From the NCBI GenBank assembly GCA_963816145.1, contig CAWFJP010000030.1, positions 160,001-224,000 on the forward strand: a stretch of DNA of 64,000 nucleotides, in the 5' to 3' direction. Below the pieces are notes generated by a model. The model worked only from the letters and a program-made list of their open reading frames with translations, made no database searches and was not told the DNA's origin. Source of the stretch: an uncultured delta proteobacterium (GTDB lineage Bacteria > Desulfobacterota > Binatia > UBA9968). The position numbers and the translations under genes are program-made. Below, in pieces: positions 1 to 8,228 of the stretch. Position 1 is the first letter of the stretch; every line of letters begins with the position of its first letter.

Positions 1-775
1 TAGGCTGCAGAAGTGTTACATTTGGTAACAATGCACAAGCAGACCGATCGGCGGCATTTGTCGCCCAAGTGGGTACAGCGGCAAACATTACCTCTCGGAA
101 TCTTCGTGCAAGCTCTAAAAAAATAGGCAGACCTTTAATATTGGAGGGATTGATCATGGTTACGTAGAGATTATCCCATGACCCCAGCGGTGGAAAGGGT
201 GGCAATCCATAGACCGGCACGCACGCGACAAAGGAATCTAAGCCGCCCCATTTCTCGATATAACTTTTCAGGTATTTGCTGCTGGTTAGAATACCTGCAA
301 CATCTTCTAGCATTTGCTTTTTGAATCGGTCGACCGTAAAGGCTTCCGGCCCGAACGGTAAAGTCGCCTGACTCTGGGATAAAAATAACGTACGTCGCGG
401 ATCGATTTCAGTAGCTGCAGCGAGCAGCATATAAGTAGGATCTTCGGAGATGATAATCCAAGTCGGATCAAACTCCTGTATCTGGGCTTTCAAGTGCTCA
501 TGAAGCCGTGCTCCATTGGCTAAAGCGTAAACTTTTACTCCATTACGGAAAAACACCTGACGGGATGGCGAGAGTTCCAGGATACTCACAGCAGATCTAT
601 CGTGTCGATTGAGACGTGCAAACGGTTTCAACTCTTCGGCGGGCGTCCCCACTAGAGCGATTGCTCTACATTCATGGCCTCTTTCCGCCAATCCCTCTAA
701 TAAACACCGACCCACTCGGCTGGCACCATTCAATACTGGCAGGTAGGGTAATTTTTGCGCAAATAGTATTTTCAC
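1..775 (-). CDS. GT4-like glycosyltransferase, 5' part (runs off window start)
   Basis: Not in ORF track; manual translation from GTG at 775 gives MKILFAQKLPYLPVLNGA...GHEC...TMINPSNIKGLPIFLELARRF..FAAVPTWAT, and the same frame is open at the window edge; GT-B/GT4-like N-terminus, directly after the FkbH gene. Confidence 0.8.
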   Translation of the reverse strand, partial: MKILFAQKLPYLPVLNGASRVGRCLLEGLAERGHECRAIALVGTPAEELKPFARLNRHDRSAVSILELSPSRQVFFRNGVKVYALANGARLHEHLKAQIQEFDPTWIIISEDPTYMLLAAATEIDPRRTLFLSQSQATLPFGPEAFTVDRFKKQMLEDVAGILTSSKYLKSYIEKWGGLDSFVACVPVYGLPPFPPLGSWDNLYVTMINPSNIKGLPIFLELARRFREVMFAAVPTWATNAADRSACALLPNVTLLQP

Positions 776-813: not shown

Positions 814-3015
814 CTATTTTTTGCCGCTTATGCTGGTAAGGTCTTTTAATTCGTCCATCGACAAGGCATCCAGCTTATCCAAAATGGCGCCGATTTCCGC
901 AGGATCAGATTGTCGGAACTGCTCCATAAGTATTGCCTTCGACAGAACCGCCACCGTAAATTCCTGAGTCACGAGCAACCGCGGTGAGAGTTCGACGTCA
1001 AAACTTGCTCGTATACGAGACAACACCTGCATCGCCAAGAGAGAATGCCCTCCCAAGTCAAAAAAATTGTCGTTTATGCCGATTTCCTCAAAACCGAGAA
1101 GCTCGGACCAGATGTTGGCAATTTCTTTTTCGACCGGGGAAGTGGGCGCGACGAATGGCACTGTGAGCTCAGGGCGCGCTCCGCCAAAAGATGAGACGGC
1201 CTCATGGATCGTATTCGGATCATTCAATGTCATGGCGATATGGATCAAGACGTCGTCCCCACCCTGGGGCCTGAATCGCGATCTCGAATCTTGTGGGATC
1301 ACCGGCGCTGATGAAACCCCGTCTGACCCTTCATCGTTTTGGCGTGTCACTTTATCCGGATCCATTTTATAATCGGCCGCCATACTGGCGGTAACTTGAT
1401 ATCGCCAACCACCCTCGCAGACTTCTTTTTTTGCGCTTACTAGGGACTCAAGAAAGTTAGCGGCCGGTTTGTTTTTGGACGTCGGCATGAACCGAAGCTC
1501 CACAGAATCCGCGTCCTTTTCTATGGCTATCGTTCCTAACCTTGCCAACATTTGGTGTTCGACTCCGCGCCCCATCGCGCGGCAGCTGAGCAAGAATGTA
1601 TCTACAATTACCGAGCGTGACAAAACCTGATAAATAATCACGCCGACGAGGCCATAGTCACCAAATCGATCACCAACGTGGACAATCAGAATTTCCTTGC
1701 CTTCCTGCTGCAAGTGTTGCAATTCTGATTCAGACCGCCGAATGGTAGAAACGTTAAATTGGTTCGTCCGGTAAGTGAGGTCGGCGACTCTTGCCAACGA
1801 ATGAGCAGTGGCGGGCGAAATGTCGATTTGTAGTTGGAGCTCTGCGAGAAATTCCCCGAAAGTGAGTGATCGTTGTCGGACCGAGTCGCGCTGAAAATGT
1901 TCTCGATAGAGTTCCGTTCGACGCTTATCTTCAGTGGTTACTTTGCCATGATCAAAAACCCACAGATGATCGAGAAACTGCGGGGTACATTCCGGATCCG
2001 GCGGCAGCTGAATCGCCAAAACGTCAGCGCAGTTCGCTCTTACCTCGCCGCATTCAACCGGGTCATCGTCGATAAGAATAAAGGCATCGAGTCCCAGATT
2101 CAATTCCTTTGCCAACGATCTTAGATTTTCGGACTTAGGCCTCCAGTTGATCCGCGAAGCAAGGAAATGATCCCGCTGCACGAGCATTCCAGGATGGGCG
2201 TCAAATACTGCCTGGACATCTTCCTCATTATTCTTGCTGCAAAGACAGAGAACTATGCCCGCGTCGTGCTGCCGTAGGACGAATTCCTGTAGAGCTTTCC
2301 TCGTCGAATCAATTTGGACGGCCGTCGGCCCATCTTCTCCGCACGCCCCGCCCCATAGAGTATTGTCACAATCGAGGGCGATGACTTTGTGAGGAAGCTT
2401 TTTCAATGCGTAAATCTTCCGCGCGATCATAGTGGCTAGAGCCGTAAAGTACACTGGTGTGTAAGGCACGTGAGCGAGCTTGTCCGTATAATCGTCGCGA
2501 CAGTCTGGAACGGGATAAAGCTTTGCCATATCTTCGTGATGCAGGACGTGTACACCGGCGATCTCTCCAGCCTCCGAGACCAGGTAGTGTTCCATCTTAG
2601 TGATGAAAGCATTTGCCTCCGAATCGGCAGCGCGATGCTGGGATGGAGGGCATAAACACACAAGAAATGTCGTGGGCACTTTCCCTACGGCAGCCCGGAG
2701 ACACTGAAGAAAATCACCGACGTTTCGCTCTATCTCCGATTCAAACGAACCCGGCGCGTCGGTCGCGGGTGCGCCCCCCCAGTCTTCAAGCCGAACCAGA
2801 GTGACGTCTATATCGTTATTGCTGCTAGATAACGAGCCAGGGTAGGTCAGGAGATGTTGGAACAGCTGCCCATACGGCGCAAACTGAATCCGGACAGGTT
2901 GACGTAATTCTTCCATCCAGAAGCGCAGCGGCACTTCGACCGAATCAGCGGTAAACGATGCCGCAATAGTAAGTGAAATTTGTTCGTCGGTCGAACCCAA
3001 AGCGTTTGCGTCCAT
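814..3015 (-). CDS. FkbH-like HAD-IIIC phosphatase/glyceryl transferase fused to C-terminal carrier (PCP/ACP) domain
   Basis: LDCDNTLWGG (HAD DxD), CSKNN, RINWRPKS, IDDDPVE, RTNQFN, DRFGDYG, LLSCRAMGRG, and the phosphopantetheine site FFDLGGHSLLA. Confidence 0.92.
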   Translation of the reverse strand: MDANALGSTDEQISLTIAASFTADSVEVPLRFWMEELRQPVRIQFAPYGQLFQHLLTYPGSLSSSNNDIDVTLVRLEDWGGAPATDAPGSFESEIERNVGDFLQCLRAAVGKVPTTFLVCLCPPSQHRAADSEANAFITKMEHYLVSEAGEIAGVHVLHHEDMAKLYPVPDCRDDYTDKLAHVPYTPVYFTALATMIARKIYALKKLPHKVIALDCDNTLWGGACGEDGPTAVQIDSTRKALQEFVLRQHDAGIVLCLCSKNNEEDVQAVFDAHPGMLVQRDHFLASRINWRPKSENLRSLAKELNLGLDAFILIDDDPVECGEVRANCADVLAIQLPPDPECTPQFLDHLWVFDHGKVTTEDKRRTELYREHFQRDSVRQRSLTFGEFLAELQLQIDISPATAHSLARVADLTYRTNQFNVSTIRRSESELQHLQQEGKEILIVHVGDRFGDYGLVGVIIYQVLSRSVIVDTFLLSCRAMGRGVEHQMLARLGTIAIEKDADSVELRFMPTSKNKPAANFLESLVSAKKEVCEGGWRYQVTASMAADYKMDPDKVTRQNDEGSDGVSSAPVIPQDSRSRFRPQGGDDVLIHIAMTLNDPNTIHEAVSSFGGARPELTVPFVAPTSPVEKEIANIWSELLGFEEIGINDNFFDLGGHSLLAMQVLSRIRASFDVELSPRLLVTQEFTVAVLSKAILMEQFRQSDPAEIGAILDKLDALSMDELKDLTSISGKK

Positions 3016-3052: not shown

Positions 3053-3802
3053 TTAGTCTTTGCGTCTGTTCGGTATCTCGTTGAGCCGCTTGGCTAATAT
3101 GTCCATCAGGCGTTTATAGGAAAGAGGCGGCGCCAAAAAGGAAAAGTCCCGGCTACCGATAGATTCAAACCGAGGCTGCTCGCTAGCGATAGCCGTTTTC
3201 TCAAATTCCGATTTCCATACTTCAGCAAGTTCGGGAAAGCCCAATTTCTGTGCGATATTGCATAAGATGTTTTCGCCCGAATTAAAATAGCCAGCTTGGT
3301 CGCGTTTCTTCACGCCGCAGAAGAGAATGCCCAGATCCAAATAATCTTCCAGTTCGTTCGCCAGACGAATTAAAACAACGTCTCTCTCAAACTGGCTCAG
3401 AGAATCCAACTGAACGCAGATGCTCTGTGCAACCTGCTGGTTCCACCTTAACTCGTTGTACCTTGCGACATACTCTTCCACTTCCGGGCCTACGGCGGCT
3501 CTTACATAGTCTTGTTTTGCAGACGAGAGACCTTGTTTGTTGTCGCCAAAATCACCGCTATCGTACGCGGCATGAAGGAGTCCGGCGGCTATTATGCGTG
3601 GCGCTGAACGAACACTCGTCAGGATACTCGCCGTGCCAACCAAGTGGGCAATGAAGGTTTTCCCGGACCCTCTGAAGCGTCCGGTGAAAAGGGTCATTGC
3701 GAGCTCGTAAGACTTTTTGACAGCAGCTATTTCCTGTTCATCGTACCCGAGGTCATACATCTGATTGAACAGCTGAATATTCGTTTGTGCAAAGCGATAC
3801 AA
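3053..3802 (-). CDS. HD-fold (RelA/Mesh1-hydrolase-like) protein with degenerate HD motif
   Basis: RGSGKTFIAHLVGTASIL...AAGLLHAAY...IRLANELED pattern; start moved to TTG at 3802 after GAAGGG RBS (the track start at 3940 overlaps the upstream gene). Confidence 0.65.
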   Translation of the reverse strand: MYRFAQTNIQLFNQMYDLGYDEQEIAAVKKSYELAMTLFTGRFRGSGKTFIAHLVGTASILTSVRSAPRIIAAGLLHAAYDSGDFGDNKQGLSSAKQDYVRAAVGPEVEEYVARYNELRWNQQVAQSICVQLDSLSQFERDVVLIRLANELEDYLDLGILFCGVKKRDQAGYFNSGENILCNIAQKLGFPELAEVWKSEFEKTAIASEQPRFESIGSRDFSFLAPPLSYKRLMDILAKRLNEIPNRRKD

Positions 3803-3813
3803 TTTGTTTCCCT

Positions 3814-5298
3814 TCAAAGTGTATGTGCCGATGTTAAATACGGGACGACTCCACTGCGTTCCAACTGAGGCACACTGACGACCTTGCCGGTCACGGCCTC
3901 GACCAGTTTCACCGGCGTACTGCCAAGATTCACGTCGCATAAATCACCGGCGACATAGGCGCTTCCTGCCAAAGGTGCAGAAATCGCGGTTGGCGCCGGT
4001 TGTACCACCTTCCGCAGCGCCGCTGCACTGCGCCAGTTTCCGGTATCGACTGCCAGCCAACATTGATATTGCTGCGGCGATGGCTCAAGAGTCAGGAACG
4101 CGAACGGTCTTATTTTGCGCAGCGGCTCGGCTTCTCTGGTTTCTACACAAACCAGGGTTGGATCGTTGGCTCGGCCTCGCGAGAGAGGGCGGATAACAAC
4201 GCCGGATCGACCCTCACTGGCTTGACGTAGGAGCTGAGGAAGTTTTCCAAAGGTTTCCTGTGCGTCCAAATTCGGCCAAGCCTCGATGGTATCGCTTTTG
4301 TTCTTGACGATGCTGAGATCGAAGCGGTCTCGATCGACCGATAAGAACATCGCCACCATGAGCTCGGCTTGCTCACGAGGCAGCTCGGGTTGATAGCCTG
4401 GCTTGCCATTGGGTACCGTTAGCCCTGTCAGAAACCGACGATGACCGCGGGCAAATTTGATGATCGTTTCCTCGCTCTCGGGCACCGCCTTTTCACTAAA
4501 CCAACGCAACGCGGACACACCCCATTTTGCATTGAAGTGGCGCACCGTTGCTAAGTTCCAGGCCTCGCTCCAACGCAACATAAAGTAGGGAACATCGAAC
4601 CATTCATAAGGAGGCGGTGGCACATAACTAGTAACTGCGCGCGGCTCAATATAAACCGATCCTCCTGCCTCACGCACAGCCATGCCAATGTCGATATGTT
4701 CATGCAGGCTTAAAAGTTTTTCGTCCAGCGGACCGAGACGTTGAAGAATCTCAGTACGTATAAGCATGCAATGGAATTCTGCATAATCCCAAGCGCGTCG
4801 CTGCAGACGATCCTGAACTTGGTCGAGCTTCGTTTCGAAAAGATATTGTTCGTCATACAGAATTCGCTTGCCTTCATGTTCCTTGACGTGCAGAGTGCCG
4901 CCAGCCATGTGAATGGTCTGTTTTTCCAGCTCTCCAATGAGGTAGAGAGGTCCGACGATCCAGGCATCGGTGTCGTTTGCACATCGGACAAGAGCCGCCA
5001 ACCAGCCGGGCCTCACCAGCGCGTCATTATCGATGAATACCGTGTATTTGGTCTTCACTTCGCGCCAGCCAAGGTTGCGAGCTTGGTTGGGAGACAGATA
5101 TCGATCCAGCGAAATTACCCGGAAGCCTTTTCGCTGCGATTCCTCCTTAAGGAATGTTCGCAAGGGCCCCGGGCTGCCTGCGTCGATGTATATTAAGTCG
5201 AACGGAAAGTCTGTGTTTTCATAAATATTGATCAAAGATTGTTGGGCGAAGCTAAATCGTTCGCGAGGAACCACCACGATGGTGACCTGGGATTCCAT
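3814..5298 (-). CDS. GT2 family glycosyltransferase with C-terminal extension resembling a RepB-type primase domain
   Basis: N-terminal VTIVVVPRERF..LIYIDAGS..ARNLG..VFIDND (DxD)..HEHID; the ~180 aa extra C-terminus is described in findings. Confidence 0.85.
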   Translation of the reverse strand: MESQVTIVVVPRERFSFAQQSLINIYENTDFPFDLIYIDAGSPGPLRTFLKEESQRKGFRVISLDRYLSPNQARNLGWREVKTKYTVFIDNDALVRPGWLAALVRCANDTDAWIVGPLYLIGELEKQTIHMAGGTLHVKEHEGKRILYDEQYLFETKLDQVQDRLQRRAWDYAEFHCMLIRTEILQRLGPLDEKLLSLHEHIDIGMAVREAGGSVYIEPRAVTSYVPPPPYEWFDVPYFMLRWSEAWNLATVRHFNAKWGVSALRWFSEKAVPESEETIIKFARGHRRFLTGLTVPNGKPGYQPELPREQAELMVAMFLSVDRDRFDLSIVKNKSDTIEAWPNLDAQETFGKLPQLLRQASEGRSGVVIRPLSRGRANDPTLVCVETREAEPLRKIRPFAFLTLEPSPQQYQCWLAVDTGNWRSAAALRKVVQPAPTAISAPLAGSAYVAGDLCDVNLGSTPVKLVEAVTGKVVSVPQLERSGVVPYLTSAHTL

Positions 5299-6824
5299 GT
5301 TGAAGACTCCTACTGATCTAAACGAGAAATACCGCCGAGGTTACTTTGACAATTTTCCATGACGACAGTTCCGTCTCGCCAAAACGAACATAGGATTGTG
5401 GTGTTGTACGCTGATTTAGTACACGATTTGACACATGCCATTTTTATGCTTTTTAGATCCGTGAGCAAGGAGAAAGAGCTTCGAATAAAGTACATCACCC
5501 CGATGTAAGACTGCAAACTACGTTGACTCTAAAGTGCTAGGTGAGAAAGGACTACGGCTCACTGCTCAAAGCGAGCGTTAACTCTAGGAATCTAGGTCCG
5601 TAACGCAGAATTACATGGAAATGGAGGACGATTCATGGCGTACTCGTAGGGATAAATCTTAGCGCCGAATCATACGGAGAACGGCCTGAACAGCCAATCG
5701 GAACGCCTTAGAGAGTGAATAGAAGCAAGTTGCCGGACTTTTGTCCGCGTAATAATGACAAGCCCCAAAAACTACCGATGAAAGCGTCACTCAGGGCTTG
5801 GTTTCGTTGGGCTTGAGGGTCGCGCTTAAGTTCTAAGACGATTCACCCACGATCGATTTTAGAATGGCCTTCAAGAGGTCCTCTAGTTTCCACTCCGTGC
5901 TGCCAGTTTGCCGCAACTTTACCGAAACTAATTGCTGGTATGTGTTTTCGAACGGAAATTGAGTGAGCGTGATGTAACTGTAGGCGCTTGAATTCCTTGA
6001 GTTGACTACCATAGGTTGCACACAGCCCGGCTACCACTCCGGAACTGAAAATCCTCATGTCGCTGATCGATCATGCGCAATGGCGATTGTGTCTTTTATG
6101 TTTCCAGTGTGATTCCAGATGAAGTTAACGGAACCAGAGAAACGGTTCCATCCTCATGCTTATTTACCTCGTTTTTGTCGGTTTTTTCTAGTCGAGTTAT
6201 GTTCTGGAGTTGGCTAGTGTTTTTCGTAATCAGTGGATCGCCGGTTCACCTTCGGCGCATCGCTCCAGATTTTATCGATGATTTGGAATCCCGTCCGATG
6301 AGATGATTTGGCTTTGCGGGCGCATTGTCCGTGTTCAGCCCGCTTTCGCGCACTCAGCGGACCGATCGGGACGAAGACTTCAACTGCAAAAGACTTGCAG
6401 GATATTCTGAACAGGTTACGCGGGACGCCTTACAACTTTCGAAAGCACAACGGAAGCGTTCGCAAGTCCAGCGGCCAACGCAAGATATCCGAGCTCGGCA
6501 TATCCTCCCGACACCGACCGACTGGAGTGATTGCATACGAATTAGCGAGCTCTTGGGAGTGAGACACCATGCTATCAGCGAGCCGAGGGGGAATAGGCTT
6601 AGCGAGGCAAGTATTTTATTCTGGCCGGAGCAAGCGAGCATGGTGAATCGAGACTAGCCCCTTCCCCCCTTTGTCAACAACGGATGCGCACATTGCGCGA
6701 TGTCGGGTTTTTGACAGTTAGTTTGTTGAAAACACCGAAAGCATGTACAAACTGGATAAACGTGAATGCAGTAAAATTGCAGAGTTAGAACCATCGTGAT
6801 TGATGCTTAAAGGGTAACGCAGAA

Positions 6825-6868
6825 CTCTCCCGTCGGGAACACGGGGTCGAGTCCCGTTCGGACCATCA
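6825..6868 (+). other. Degenerate tRNA 3' fragment (tRNA-Glu-like), possible att remnant
   Basis: ctctcccgtcgggaac-acggg-gtcgagt-cccgt-tcggaccatca: T-arm stem ACGGG/CCCGT with near-TTCGAGT loop and acceptor-like 3' strand; no 5' half. Confidence 0.5.
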
Positions 6869-6998
6869 AGTTTGCTTCCCTTGCCTAAAACGATGCAACA
6901 GCGGCCACACGATCGCGCATCTCAGCTCGGGGCTGTTCCGATGAAGCGCCGGTTGCGCGAATGCAATCTCGACGAAGCGCGGCAAGAAGAAGAACTTC

Positions 6999-8228
6999 AT
7001 GCTTCTAAACACTACCTTCCGCGCCTTTCGCCACCGCGACTACTTGATCTACTGGCTCGGTCTATTTCTTGGCCATACCGGCACATTGGTGCAGACCACC
7101 GCGCAGACCTGGCTGATCTTTCAACTGACCCATTCGCCATTTTATCTAGGCCTAGAGGGACTCTGCCTGGGTTTACCGCGGGTGCTGTTTTCCGCCTTCG
7201 GCGGCGCCGTGGTCGATCGCACGGACCTAAAAACCATTTTTGTCCTGACCCAAATTTCTTTCGTCGCGATGGCGCTGTTTCTCGGCGTGATGCGTCATCT
7301 CGGGCTCATTCAGGTATGGCATCTCCTGCTGGTCTCCGCCCTCACCGGCTTTCTGGTTTCGTTCGAGCAACCGGTGCGCCAGTCGATCCTACATCATCTT
7401 GTGCCACGCGAAGATCTGCCCAACGCCGTCACGCTCTATCAAATGGTTTTCAATGGCTCGATGCTGTTCGGACCTTCGATCGGAGGTTTGCTGATTCCAG
7501 TGATCGATACCAAGGGCTGTTTCTTCCTAGCCACCATCGGCAATCTGCTCGTGTTAGTCACGATATTTCTCATCCGCATACCCGCCACGGAACCGTCGGC
7601 GGCCAAAACCAGTATTACGCGCGACATGATCGAAGGTCTTAAGCTCGCGTGGAAAACCCCGATGTTTCTGGCGCTTCTAACAGTCCTCGCCGTCGTCAGC
7701 TTTTGCACCAAACCCTATACTCAGTTCATGCCGGTGTTCGCGCAGACAATTCTCAACGTCGGCGCCCCCGGTCTCGGCATGTTGCTCATGGCGCCGGGCG
7801 CCGGCGCGATCTTGGGCGGGCTGACCCTCGCCTCGGTGCGCCGTTTTCCTAAACCGCCGCGTTTGCTGTTTGGCCTAGCTGCCGGATTCGGCATCTGCAT
7901 CGTTCTATTCGCCACCTCGCGCAGCTTTCTCTTGTCGCTGGTATTCTTGTTCTTCGCCGGTAGCTTTCAGACCACATTCCTATCGTCGGTCGCCACGCTG
8001 CTACAATTCCACACCAACGAGCACAACCGCGGTCGTATCATGTCGATGTTTGGTCTGATCAATCGCGGCCTCGGCCCAATGGGCAGCTTTCCCTTCGGAC
8101 TGATCGCGACCTGGATTGGCGCCCCTTGGACTGTGGCGATCTGCGGCGCGCTCACCATCAGCCTGGTCGGCTATGTGGTTAATTACCGTGCAAGTTTACG
8201 TGACGCCAAAGCGGTCGGTGAGAATTAA
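6999..8228 (+). CDS. MFS transporter (DHA3/MFS_3-like efflux family)
   Basis: FRAFRHRDY start, GGAVVDR, FEQPVRQS, NRGRIMS motifs; about 12 hydrophobic segments. Confidence 0.9.
   Translation: MLLNTTFRAFRHRDYLIYWLGLFLGHTGTLVQTTAQTWLIFQLTHSPFYLGLEGLCLGLPRVLFSAFGGAVVDRTDLKTIFVLTQISFVAMALFLGVMRHLGLIQVWHLLLVSALTGFLVSFEQPVRQSILHHLVPREDLPNAVTLYQMVFNGSMLFGPSIGGLLIPVIDTKGCFFLATIGNLLVLVTIFLIRIPATEPSAAKTSITRDMIEGLKLAWKTPMFLALLTVLAVVSFCTKPYTQFMPVFAQTILNVGAPGLGMLLMAPGAGAILGGLTLASVRRFPKPPRLLFGLAAGFGICIVLFATSRSFLLSLVFLFFAGSFQTTFLSSVATLLQFHTNEHNRGRIMSMFGLINRGLGPMGSFPFGLIATWIGAPWTVAICGALTISLVGYVVNYRASLRDAKAVGEN

Follow-up and report, generated by a model that had tools for sequence, protein, structure and literature searches.

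A GT2 glycosyltransferase fused to a degenerate RepB'-type primase domain and its linkage to FkbH-ACP genes in uncultured bacteria

What does a primase-like domain do at the end of a glycosyltransferase? The question is raised by a gene in the stretch of DNA analysed here, 64,000 nucleotides of contig CAWFJP010000030.1 (positions 160,001 to 224,000) from an uncultured member of the Binatia, hereafter the window. The gene encodes a glycosyltransferase family 2 (GT2) domain continued by a C-terminal tail, and an original prediction made from the letters of the window described the product as a GT2 enzyme fused to a degenerate RepB-type primase domain. Sequence profiles, the predicted fold and the catalytic columns all support that description, which places the tail next to RepB' of plasmid RSF1010 amongst the archaeo-eukaryotic primases (AEPs). 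Genes with the tail are accompanied by genes of the FkbH-acyl carrier protein (FkbH-ACP) type. We propose, with a probability of about 0.5, that the dead primase fold serves recognition or docking, without catalysis of its own, and thereby links a working GT2 domain to a carrier-protein pathway handling glycerate.

Homology and predicted fold of the tail

The peptide strings that had suggested a RepB-type domain are all present in the fusion protein in the order given, namely FLSVDRDRFDLSI (residues 318-330), LPQLL (353-357), GVVIRP (366-371), TLVCVET (381-387), IRPFAFLTLEPSPQQYQCWLAV (396-417) and APLAGS (441-446). Nucleotides 3814-4370, to which the domain had been assigned, correspond to residues ~310-494 together with the stop codon. 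The order of RepB motifs given in the original prediction agrees with the RSF1010 RepB' chains, where YIRP, LVLVDDL, ETSPKNYQAW and GRLAGF occupy the aligned columns. The motifs of the fusion family that align to these four are IRP, L-x-x-D-D-L, ET.P..YQCW and LAGS, respectively.

Taken alone, the tail of the window protein is too diverged for routine searches. Pfam assigned it to no family, PF16793 was not found in either the whole protein or the tail even at E<=10, and phmmer with the tail returned only PDB chain 3h25_A at E 1.1. The PF16793 model run against the whole genome gave 0 matches, and thus misses the three copies of the fusion that this genome holds, since they are too diverged for that model. 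As the lone tail gives no significant match, the assignment is carried by the family profile and by the fold. A profile of 43 tails cut from loci without selection (A2) matched both RSF1010 RepB' chains, 3h25_A (E 3.1e-8) and 3h20_A (7.7e-8), and its positions 57-188 fall on RepB' 37-171; just 3 PDB sequences were found at E<=10, the third at 0.19. A further profile (A1) matched 3h25_A at E 3.8e-7 over residues 320-473. PF16793 itself matches 8 of the 43 unselected tails, and 7/7 full-length homologs that were chosen for their precomputed PF16793 label (26-32 bits, cut-off 24.3).

Structure prediction gave the same answer. The AlphaFold2 (AF2) model of the tail has a predicted local distance difference test score (pLDDT) of 83.8 and a predicted template modelling score (pTM) of 0.82. 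The similarity to the AEP/RepB' fold on which the original prediction depended was found both by Foldseek, in which RepB' provides the first two matches (4.2e-7 for 3h25_A and 3.3e-6; template modelling scores 0.53/0.57) followed by PrimPol/AEP domains, and by VIA-align. The latter aligned 162 residues to 3h20_A (Z 13.0, root-mean-square deviation 4.0), with 3h25_A at Z 12.7 and the S-2L PrimPol at 9.5; none of the other chains amongst the 48,161 compared reaches Z 8, the best of them, an unrelated chain, scoring 7.2. In a look-up of the tail in a language-model atlas, RepB_primase clusters made up 22 of 30 matches, with a top score of 0.95. The tail is a RepB'-type primase domain at the level of the family, and the resemblance far exceeds chance.

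An exhaustive profile search with the tail retrieved 715 representatives at E<=1e-3, 356 of them at E<=1e-10. We classified 149 listed representatives, the family's own cluster aside. The domain stands at the N-terminus and is followed by a C-terminal extension in 58 (~300 aa), has extensions on both sides in 24 (~560-690 aa), and forms the tail of a GT2 protein in 10; 56 are short pieces and 1 is of another kind. The nearest relatives of the tail are free RepB-like proteins (e.g. P0142, P0149, P0129 and P0137; E 1e-20 to 3e-53). Amongst 10 sampled representatives searched with Pfam, the 8 free forms with a C-terminal extension all match PF16793, and 4 of the 8 carry the helical C-domain PF22448 at E<=0.001 (3 above cut-off). 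P0142 matches repB/mobA on 13 small plasmids, of which 11 are mobilizable and 2 conjugative, at 25-27% identity. Plasmid records match only the GT2 half of the fusion protein (2 records), and none of them holds the fusion. When the nearest free relatives were searched against NCBIfam and the PDB, no match was returned, and this includes the N-terminal extensions (~280 aa) of P0129, P0137 and P0140. As a separate observation, the dead primase domain occurs in a second architecture in P0247 (749 aa), where two GT2 stretches precede the tail (residues 536-704).

Loss of the primase motifs and maintenance of the fusion

Is the domain still a primase? We compared 119 fusions with 79 free-standing relatives (58 + 21) column by column in RepB' numbering. 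The motif III Asp, present in 65/79 free relatives, is found in 4/119 fusions, and 57 of the 119 have no acid anywhere in the loop. The motif IV Arg (R145) drops from 76/79 to 38/119, the Asn after the LAGS motif from 77/79 to 41/119, and the Lys after it from 77/79 to 0/119. At D78 an Asp is kept in 77/79 free relatives versus 49/119 fusions. The D77 column is Asp in 77 of the 79 free relatives and acidic in 110 of the 119 fusions (94 D, 16 E), and the motif II Gln (RepB' Q106) is found in 76/79 and 111/119, respectively. The Trp of motif II (W414) is kept in 110/119 fusions. In the IRP motif the fusions retain Arg in 91/119 and Pro in 113/119, and the position of RepB' Y62 is occupied by M, L, A, T or V. 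The window protein itself reads E386 at D77, T387 at D78 and P442 at R145, and has no acid in the motif III loop.

For RepB', PMC8567376 describes D77, D78 and D134 as each essential and R145 as positioning the dNTP, and states that the catalytic domain has no activity on its own, when separated from the helix-bundle domain. According to PMC5862659, a Gln in motif II and an Arg in motif IV characterise the RepB' family. No PF22448 match, and thus no helix-bundle or PriCT-type C-domain, was found in the fusion protein, which ends ~10 residues past the AEP fold. The original prediction had built its case for inactivation on replacement of the acidic pair. This applies to one half of the pair, where D78->T387 is non-conservative, and not to the other, where D77->E386 is conservative; judged from the columns, the loss of motifs III and IV is the stronger evidence for degeneration. 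Because the motif III Asp, the motif IV Arg and D78 are lost and the helix-bundle domain is missing, the tail is by all sequence indications not a primase, but a side branch of the RepB' family of AEPs that has diverged and lost its activity.

The fusions have also gained conserved residues of their own. Within a motif near the start of the tail, D322 is Asp in 113/119 fusions, whereas the free relatives have Gly there in 68/79 (52/58 + 16/21). D324 is D or E in 107/119 fusions, and D327 is common to fusions and free relatives. The residues conserved in the tails and specific to the fusions are D322, D324, E309, R423 (93/119) and R462 (93/119). The charge of the domain differs as well: the median net charge is -2 in fusion tails (n=118) and +2 in free relatives (n=72), with a median isoelectric point (pI) of 6.15 versus 8.54, and a pI above 8 is found in 16% of fusion tails and 60% of free relatives. 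The window's own tail is basic, with a net charge of +3 and a pI of 8.85.

The GT2 half shows no comparable decay. PF00535 matches residues 18-185 with 48.6 bits (cut-off 23.3), and across 77 aligned homologs the DxD columns read D (69) or E (8) at D90, with N91 and D92 each in 77/77. E174, H176, C177, E200 and D203 are invariant in the 77 sequences. With the DxD motif and these five residues kept, the GT2 half looks active, and a function in sugar transfer is predicted. The homologs carry no database label more specific than 'GT2 family glycosyltransferase'. The top NCBIfam match of the N-terminal half was MftF (TIGR03965, 1.4e-15, residues 3-117); we rejected membership of that family, as the match scores 57.1 bits where 280 are required and spans no more than a quarter of the model. 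The AF2 model of the full-length protein (pLDDT 90.9) has a pTM of 0.90, which implies a fixed two-domain arrangement in which the tail would be packed rigidly on the GT2 domain. In Foldseek the best matches to this model are polypeptide GalNAc-transferases, at E 6.7e-13.

Other GT2 proteins with this tail are plentiful. It is carried by 119 of the best 120 homologs, the exception being P0038 (311 aa), and query coverage is at least 96% in 109 of the 120. The genome of the window has three GT2-tail paralogs, on contigs C30 (the window), C14 and C5, which fall in three subclades. In a tree of the GT2 domain from 81 loci, a branch with support of 99/92 splits 45 tail-bearing loci (+3 undetermined) from 25 tail-less ones (+8 undetermined); the tail is present in 45/45 determinable members of the tail-bearing clade, and in the tail-less sister GT2s the match to the window protein ends at about residue 262. 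In a tree of the tail domain, built from every third of 118 fusions (40 rows) and 71 free relatives, one branch parts all 40 fusions from the 71 free relatives with a Shimodaira-Hasegawa-like approximate likelihood ratio test (SH-aLRT) value of 100. The simplest reading of the trees is that a single capture event gave rise to the fusion once, and the tail is, on this distribution, kept under selection. The possibility raised beforehand, that the fusion was unique and due to a lost stop codon, fails against the homologs, the three paralogs and the tail-bearing clade.

Several observations concern the distribution and integrity of the gene. The comparative loci come from a metagenome scan; a contig scan with a single protein had given 3 loci. 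A search for the tail in 400 other genomes of the phylum found 1 weak, stop-interrupted match. The genome that holds the three copies is 7.8 Mb, versus 1.6-5.6 Mb in individually listed relatives, with a contamination estimate of 6.7%. Interrupted fusion genes, in which the ORF is split or a stop lies where the two domains join, are seen at L002 7995-9495, L021 ~1243 and L052 2282-3699, which could reflect pseudogenisation or sequencing error. Tandem cassettes, in which a tail-HD unit is followed by another GT2(-tail) gene, are found at L040 356-988 + 1921-3399 and at L019 2466-3278.

Gene neighbourhood of tail-bearing and tail-less GT2 genes

Which pathway does the fusion belong to? In the window the fusion gene is followed, in operon order, by an HD_4/DUF6817 gene, an FkbH-ACP gene and a GT4-type glycosyltransferase gene (Table 1). 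The FkbH-ACP protein scores 296.6 bits against TIGR01686 (cut-off 146.65) and has a PP-binding domain (1.8e-13). Its D215, D217 and T219 (DxDxT), C478 and the carrier S658 are invariant in 29 sequences, and we take the roles of these residues to be the usual ones.

The tail-bearing loci that we examined number 49, of which 44 are metagenomic, 3 belong to this genome and 2 come from metagenome-assembled genomes. Neighbours were identified by local tblastn, and 12 loci too truncated for a verdict had been dropped. A match to the FkbH core was found in 41 of the 49, including 29/29 of those with at least 2700 nt downstream, and 3 more have a nonribosomal peptide synthetase (NRPS) carrier module directly upstream. 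Amongst the tail-less sister loci FkbH was found in 0/25, including 0/15 with at least 2000 nt downstream. The linkage persists although identity between tails falls to ~28% and the other genes are rearranged: the HD gene is present or not, third genes differ, NRPS genes come and go, and in places FkbH is replaced by upstream NRPS carriers. The HD gene occurs in 18/49 tail-bearing loci and the GT4 gene in 13/49, and the HD gene is also found in 10/25 tail-less sister loci. NRPS adenylation (A) or condensation (C) domains are present in 12/49 tail-bearing loci, and not beside the window's copy.

Where NRPS modules stand directly upstream of a GT2-tail gene (L017 3-3131, L029 1-3017, L032 3-5990, L044 728-4939 and L052 218-2161), they are of the types C-A-PCP, A-PCP, C-A-PCP-TE and bimodular C-A-PCP x2, in which PCP denotes a peptidyl carrier protein and TE a thioesterase domain.

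The longest ORF of the HD_4/DUF6817 gene overlaps the fusion gene. Its homologs match from residue ~38-50, which puts the start of the conserved part near 3802-3817, and the true start is likely the TTG at 3817 that overlaps the TGA stop of the fusion gene. This overlap suggests translational coupling of the two genes. The HD dyad of the partner reads H-A in 24 of 26 loci, with Ser in the other 2, and the partner may therefore not be a canonical HD phosphohydrolase.

Table 1. Features of the fusion gene, its operon and its two paralogs; window coordinates unless a locus is named.
Feature	Position	Strand	Evidence or remark
Whole fusion gene, GT2 + RepB'-like dead primase tail	3814..5298	(-)	494 aa; TGA stop 3814-3816
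GT2 (GT-A) catalytic domain, residues 1-262	4513..5298	(-)	PF00535 1.1e-12, PF13641 8.7e-10
DxD motif D90-N91-D92 of the GT2 domain	5023-5031	(-)	alignment columns
Linker, residues 263-305, including helix 277-290	4384..4512	(-)	secondary structure of full-length model
Degenerate RepB'-type AEP (primase catalytic) domain, residues 306-494	3817..4383	(-)	family profile + fold
SVDRDRFDL, residues 320-328, fusion-clade acidic motif	4315..4341	(-)	column comparison
VVIRP, residues 367-371 = RepB' Y62-I-R-P	4186..4200	(-)	A2 alignment
LVCVETRE, residues 382-389, motif I equivalent (RepB' LVLVDDLS)	4132..4155	(-)	D77->E386, D78->T387
LEPSPQQYQCW, residues 404-414, motif II equivalent (RepB' ETSPKNYQAW)	4057..4089	(-)	Gln retained
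APLAGS, residues 441-446, motif IV region (RepB' GRLAGF)	3961..3978	(-)	R145->P442
HD_4/DUF6817 gene (longest ORF)	3053..3940	(-)	PF20680 1.8e-10, PF13328 2.1e-07
FkbH-ACP gene (733 aa), glyceryl-carrier-protein loading enzyme with own carrier domain	814..3015	(-)	TIGR01686 2.1e-88
GT4-type glycosyltransferase gene, 5' part, runs off the window	2..775	(-)	PF00534 6.6e-13, PF13692 8.2e-12
C14 paralog	L005/L009 7252-8760		own FkbH-ACP gene directly after; 4Fe-4S protein ~900 nt further on
C5 paralog	L006/L010 7564-9096		own FkbH-ACP gene directly after; third gene EryCIII-like GT1/GT28

In full, the GT4 gene encodes 433 aa (L008 13474-14775). Further downstream on the same strand, 8-17 kb past the left end of the window, lie genes of alpha-glucan metabolism (L008 647-5915) for a GlgC-like nucleotidyltransferase, a CBM48/alpha-amylase family enzyme and an alpha-amylase with DUF3459. 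On the other side of the operon, the ~1.7 kb upstream of it (window 5299-6998) hold no ORF over ~110 aa, and an Rfam search of the ORF-poor stretch 5200-7100 gave no match at E<=0.1.

Role of the tail and comparison with known systems

The tail is the sole feature that separates FkbH-linked from FkbH-free GT2s, and on this ground we propose that it couples the GT2 domain to a carrier-bound substrate or to FkbH-ACP. In the pathway that we envisage, FkbH-ACP would load glycerate from 1,3-bisphosphoglycerate onto its own carrier to give glyceryl-S-ACP. The GT2 domain would then move a sugar onto a glycerate hydroxyl, either on the carrier or just after the unit has left it, and the second glycosyltransferase (GT4 or GT1) would extend the sugar. 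Finally, the glycosyl-glycerate unit would be released or, where an NRPS is present, taken up by it. In the suomilide loading module, the glyceryl unit that an FkbH-type enzyme places on the carrier stems from 1,3-bisphosphoglycerate, and methylation and sulfonation of the loaded glycerate on the carrier, ahead of chain extension, have been proposed (PMC13122637); that proposal is a precedent for on-carrier tailoring of glycerate loaded in this way.

Several points weigh against a docking role of this kind. Neither FkbH nor another carrier gene was found in 5/49 tail-bearing loci, all of them short contigs, and L016 and L019 bear the tail without FkbH despite having 2652 and 2308 nt downstream. 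Genes with the tail and genes without it form a pair of sister groups; the locus counts hence reflect one evolutionary transition rather than independent events, and both the tail and the FkbH linkage could be features of a clade. The first acid of motif I, the motif II Gln, IRP and LAGS are retained, and a nucleotide or phosphate pocket could still matter; the window's own tail, moreover, is basic, unlike the acidic family median. Complex prediction for FkbH-ACP (733 aa) and the tail (209 aa) scored 0.00 in both runs, which were made without controls, and speaks neither for nor against binding. A more specific form of the proposal is more tentative: the AEP fold may have been turned into a reader of the carrier protein or of its phosphopantetheine-bound glycerate, in which case glycosylation would take place on the carrier, by a module dedicated to it, and this would be the first AEP role unrelated to nucleic acids.

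One alternative is that the tail is a structural appendage that stabilises or oligomerises the GT2 domain, with no specific ligand or partner, and that the FkbH linkage is a mere feature of the clade. The high full-length pTM suggests tight packing on the GT2 domain, as such an appendage would have, and both the tail and the linkage map to one branch and are not independently replicated. The tail also evolves faster than the GT2 domain, with 28-49% versus 53-72% identity to the window protein in diverged loci. However, the tail-less sister GT2s fold and persist in 25 loci, the surface-type charged residues D322, R423 and R462 are conserved only in the fusions, and the linkage to FkbH survives rearrangement of the neighbouring genes. 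We regard an appendage without a partner as improbable.

The original prediction had favoured a different function, in which the dead primase fold has kept its affinity for nucleic acid or a nucleotide and guides the GT2 domain to DNA, RNA or a nucleotide-like acceptor. In its favour, the parent RepB' domain binds ssDNA and dNTPs (PMC8567376), and the retained elements of motif I (110/119), motif II (111/119), IRP and LAGS lie in that domain. A frequent partner belongs to the HD_4 family of nucleotide pyrophosphohydrolases, the HD-family partner at L016 2001-3140 is fused to Methyltransf_4 (PF02390), and the basic tail of the window protein would suit such a ligand. However, the conserved neighbours are FkbH-ACP, a second glycosyltransferase and often NRPS genes; genes for replication, mobile elements, restriction or base modification are not amongst them. 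The helix-bundle domain is missing, the position aligned to W50 is mostly Leu or Ala, and the family tails are acidic on average, unlike their basic free relatives. The HD partner cannot explain the tail, since it also stands beside tail-less GT2s, and its dyad mostly reads H-A. A nucleic-acid or nucleotide acceptor is therefore, in our view, quite unlikely.

We find it very doubtful that the tail is a remodelled enzyme, with the acidic cluster D322, D324, D327 and D/E386 and D/E389 as a new metal site for another reaction, e.g. one in which glycerate, a sugar phosphate or the phosphopantetheine arm undergoes phosphoryl or nucleotidyl transfer. Conserved acids have indeed been gained, the acid at 386 is kept in 110/119 fusions and that at 389 in most (78 D and 13 E of 119), and the motif II Gln is retained; the motif III Asp, the motif IV Arg and the following Asn and Lys are lost, and the accessible parts of PMC8567376 and PMC5862659 describe no AEP chemistry without those residues. 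An artefact, in which two genes were joined through a lost stop codon or misassembly, can be practically dismissed, given the tail in nearly all of the best homologs from many sources, in every determinable clade member and in three paralogs of one genome, and a model with a confident two-domain fold.

AEP and primase-polymerase domains have established places in DNA replication and repair, in mobile elements and in defence. With a conserved dead copy on a glycosyltransferase in biosynthetic operons, metabolism would plainly have taken over a replication fold. Its strict company with FkbH-ACP points to a compact cassette, widespread in soil metagenomes, that comprises the GT2-tail gene, FkbH-ACP, a second glycosyltransferase and sometimes HD and NRPS genes, and whose product is probably a glycosylated glycerate unit. 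If the tail does guide the enzyme to a substrate held on a carrier, it would amount to a recognition module that is portable, of relevance to natural-product enzymology and to the reuse of dead enzymes.

How does this arrangement compare with systems already described? Our literature searches, supplements and most subscription journals aside, returned no description of a glycosyltransferase-RepB fusion or of a GT2-tail/FkbH-ACP cassette, and so agree with the earlier statement that no fusion of this kind was known; the word 'glycosyltransferase' does not occur in the main text of PMC5862659. With FkbH-type pathways, such as the NRPS loading domain of suomilide and banyaside, the likeness lies in the neighbour, whose FkbH domain is unmistakable and which has a carrier domain of its own. 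The enzymes of these pathways go by the names of FkbH or OzmB type. The difference is that the accessible part of the suomilide paper (PMC13122637) describes neither a glycosyltransferase acting on carrier-bound glycerate nor a primase-like domain.

Polypeptide GalNAc-transferases (GT27) likewise combine a GT-A domain with a C-terminal, non-catalytic domain, which in their case reads the acceptor, as the tail is proposed to do here, and we draw on them as an analogy only. Identity to them is 11-16%, their C-terminal domain is a ricin-type lectin whereas that of the fusion is AEP-like, they are eukaryotic enzymes of protein O-glycosylation, and no GT27 family is amongst the Pfam matches of the fusion. 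The free RepB-like proteins of ~300 aa and ~560-690 aa carry PF16793 and keep all the catalytic columns, unlike the fusion tails. RepB' of the IncQ plasmid RSF1010 (3H20, 3H25; PF16793) shares with the tail the fold, the motif order and the motif II Gln. Relative to RepB', the tail is without the motif III Asp, the motif IV Arg, D78 (in this protein) and the PF22448 helix bundle, and it forms the end of a glycosyltransferase whose biosynthetic operon is chromosomal, whereas RepB' is encoded on a plasmid. Glycosyltransferases with an accessory domain and exaptation of the AEP fold are both known kinds, and it is the combination of GT2 with RepB' that appears, as far as our literature searches reach, to be new.

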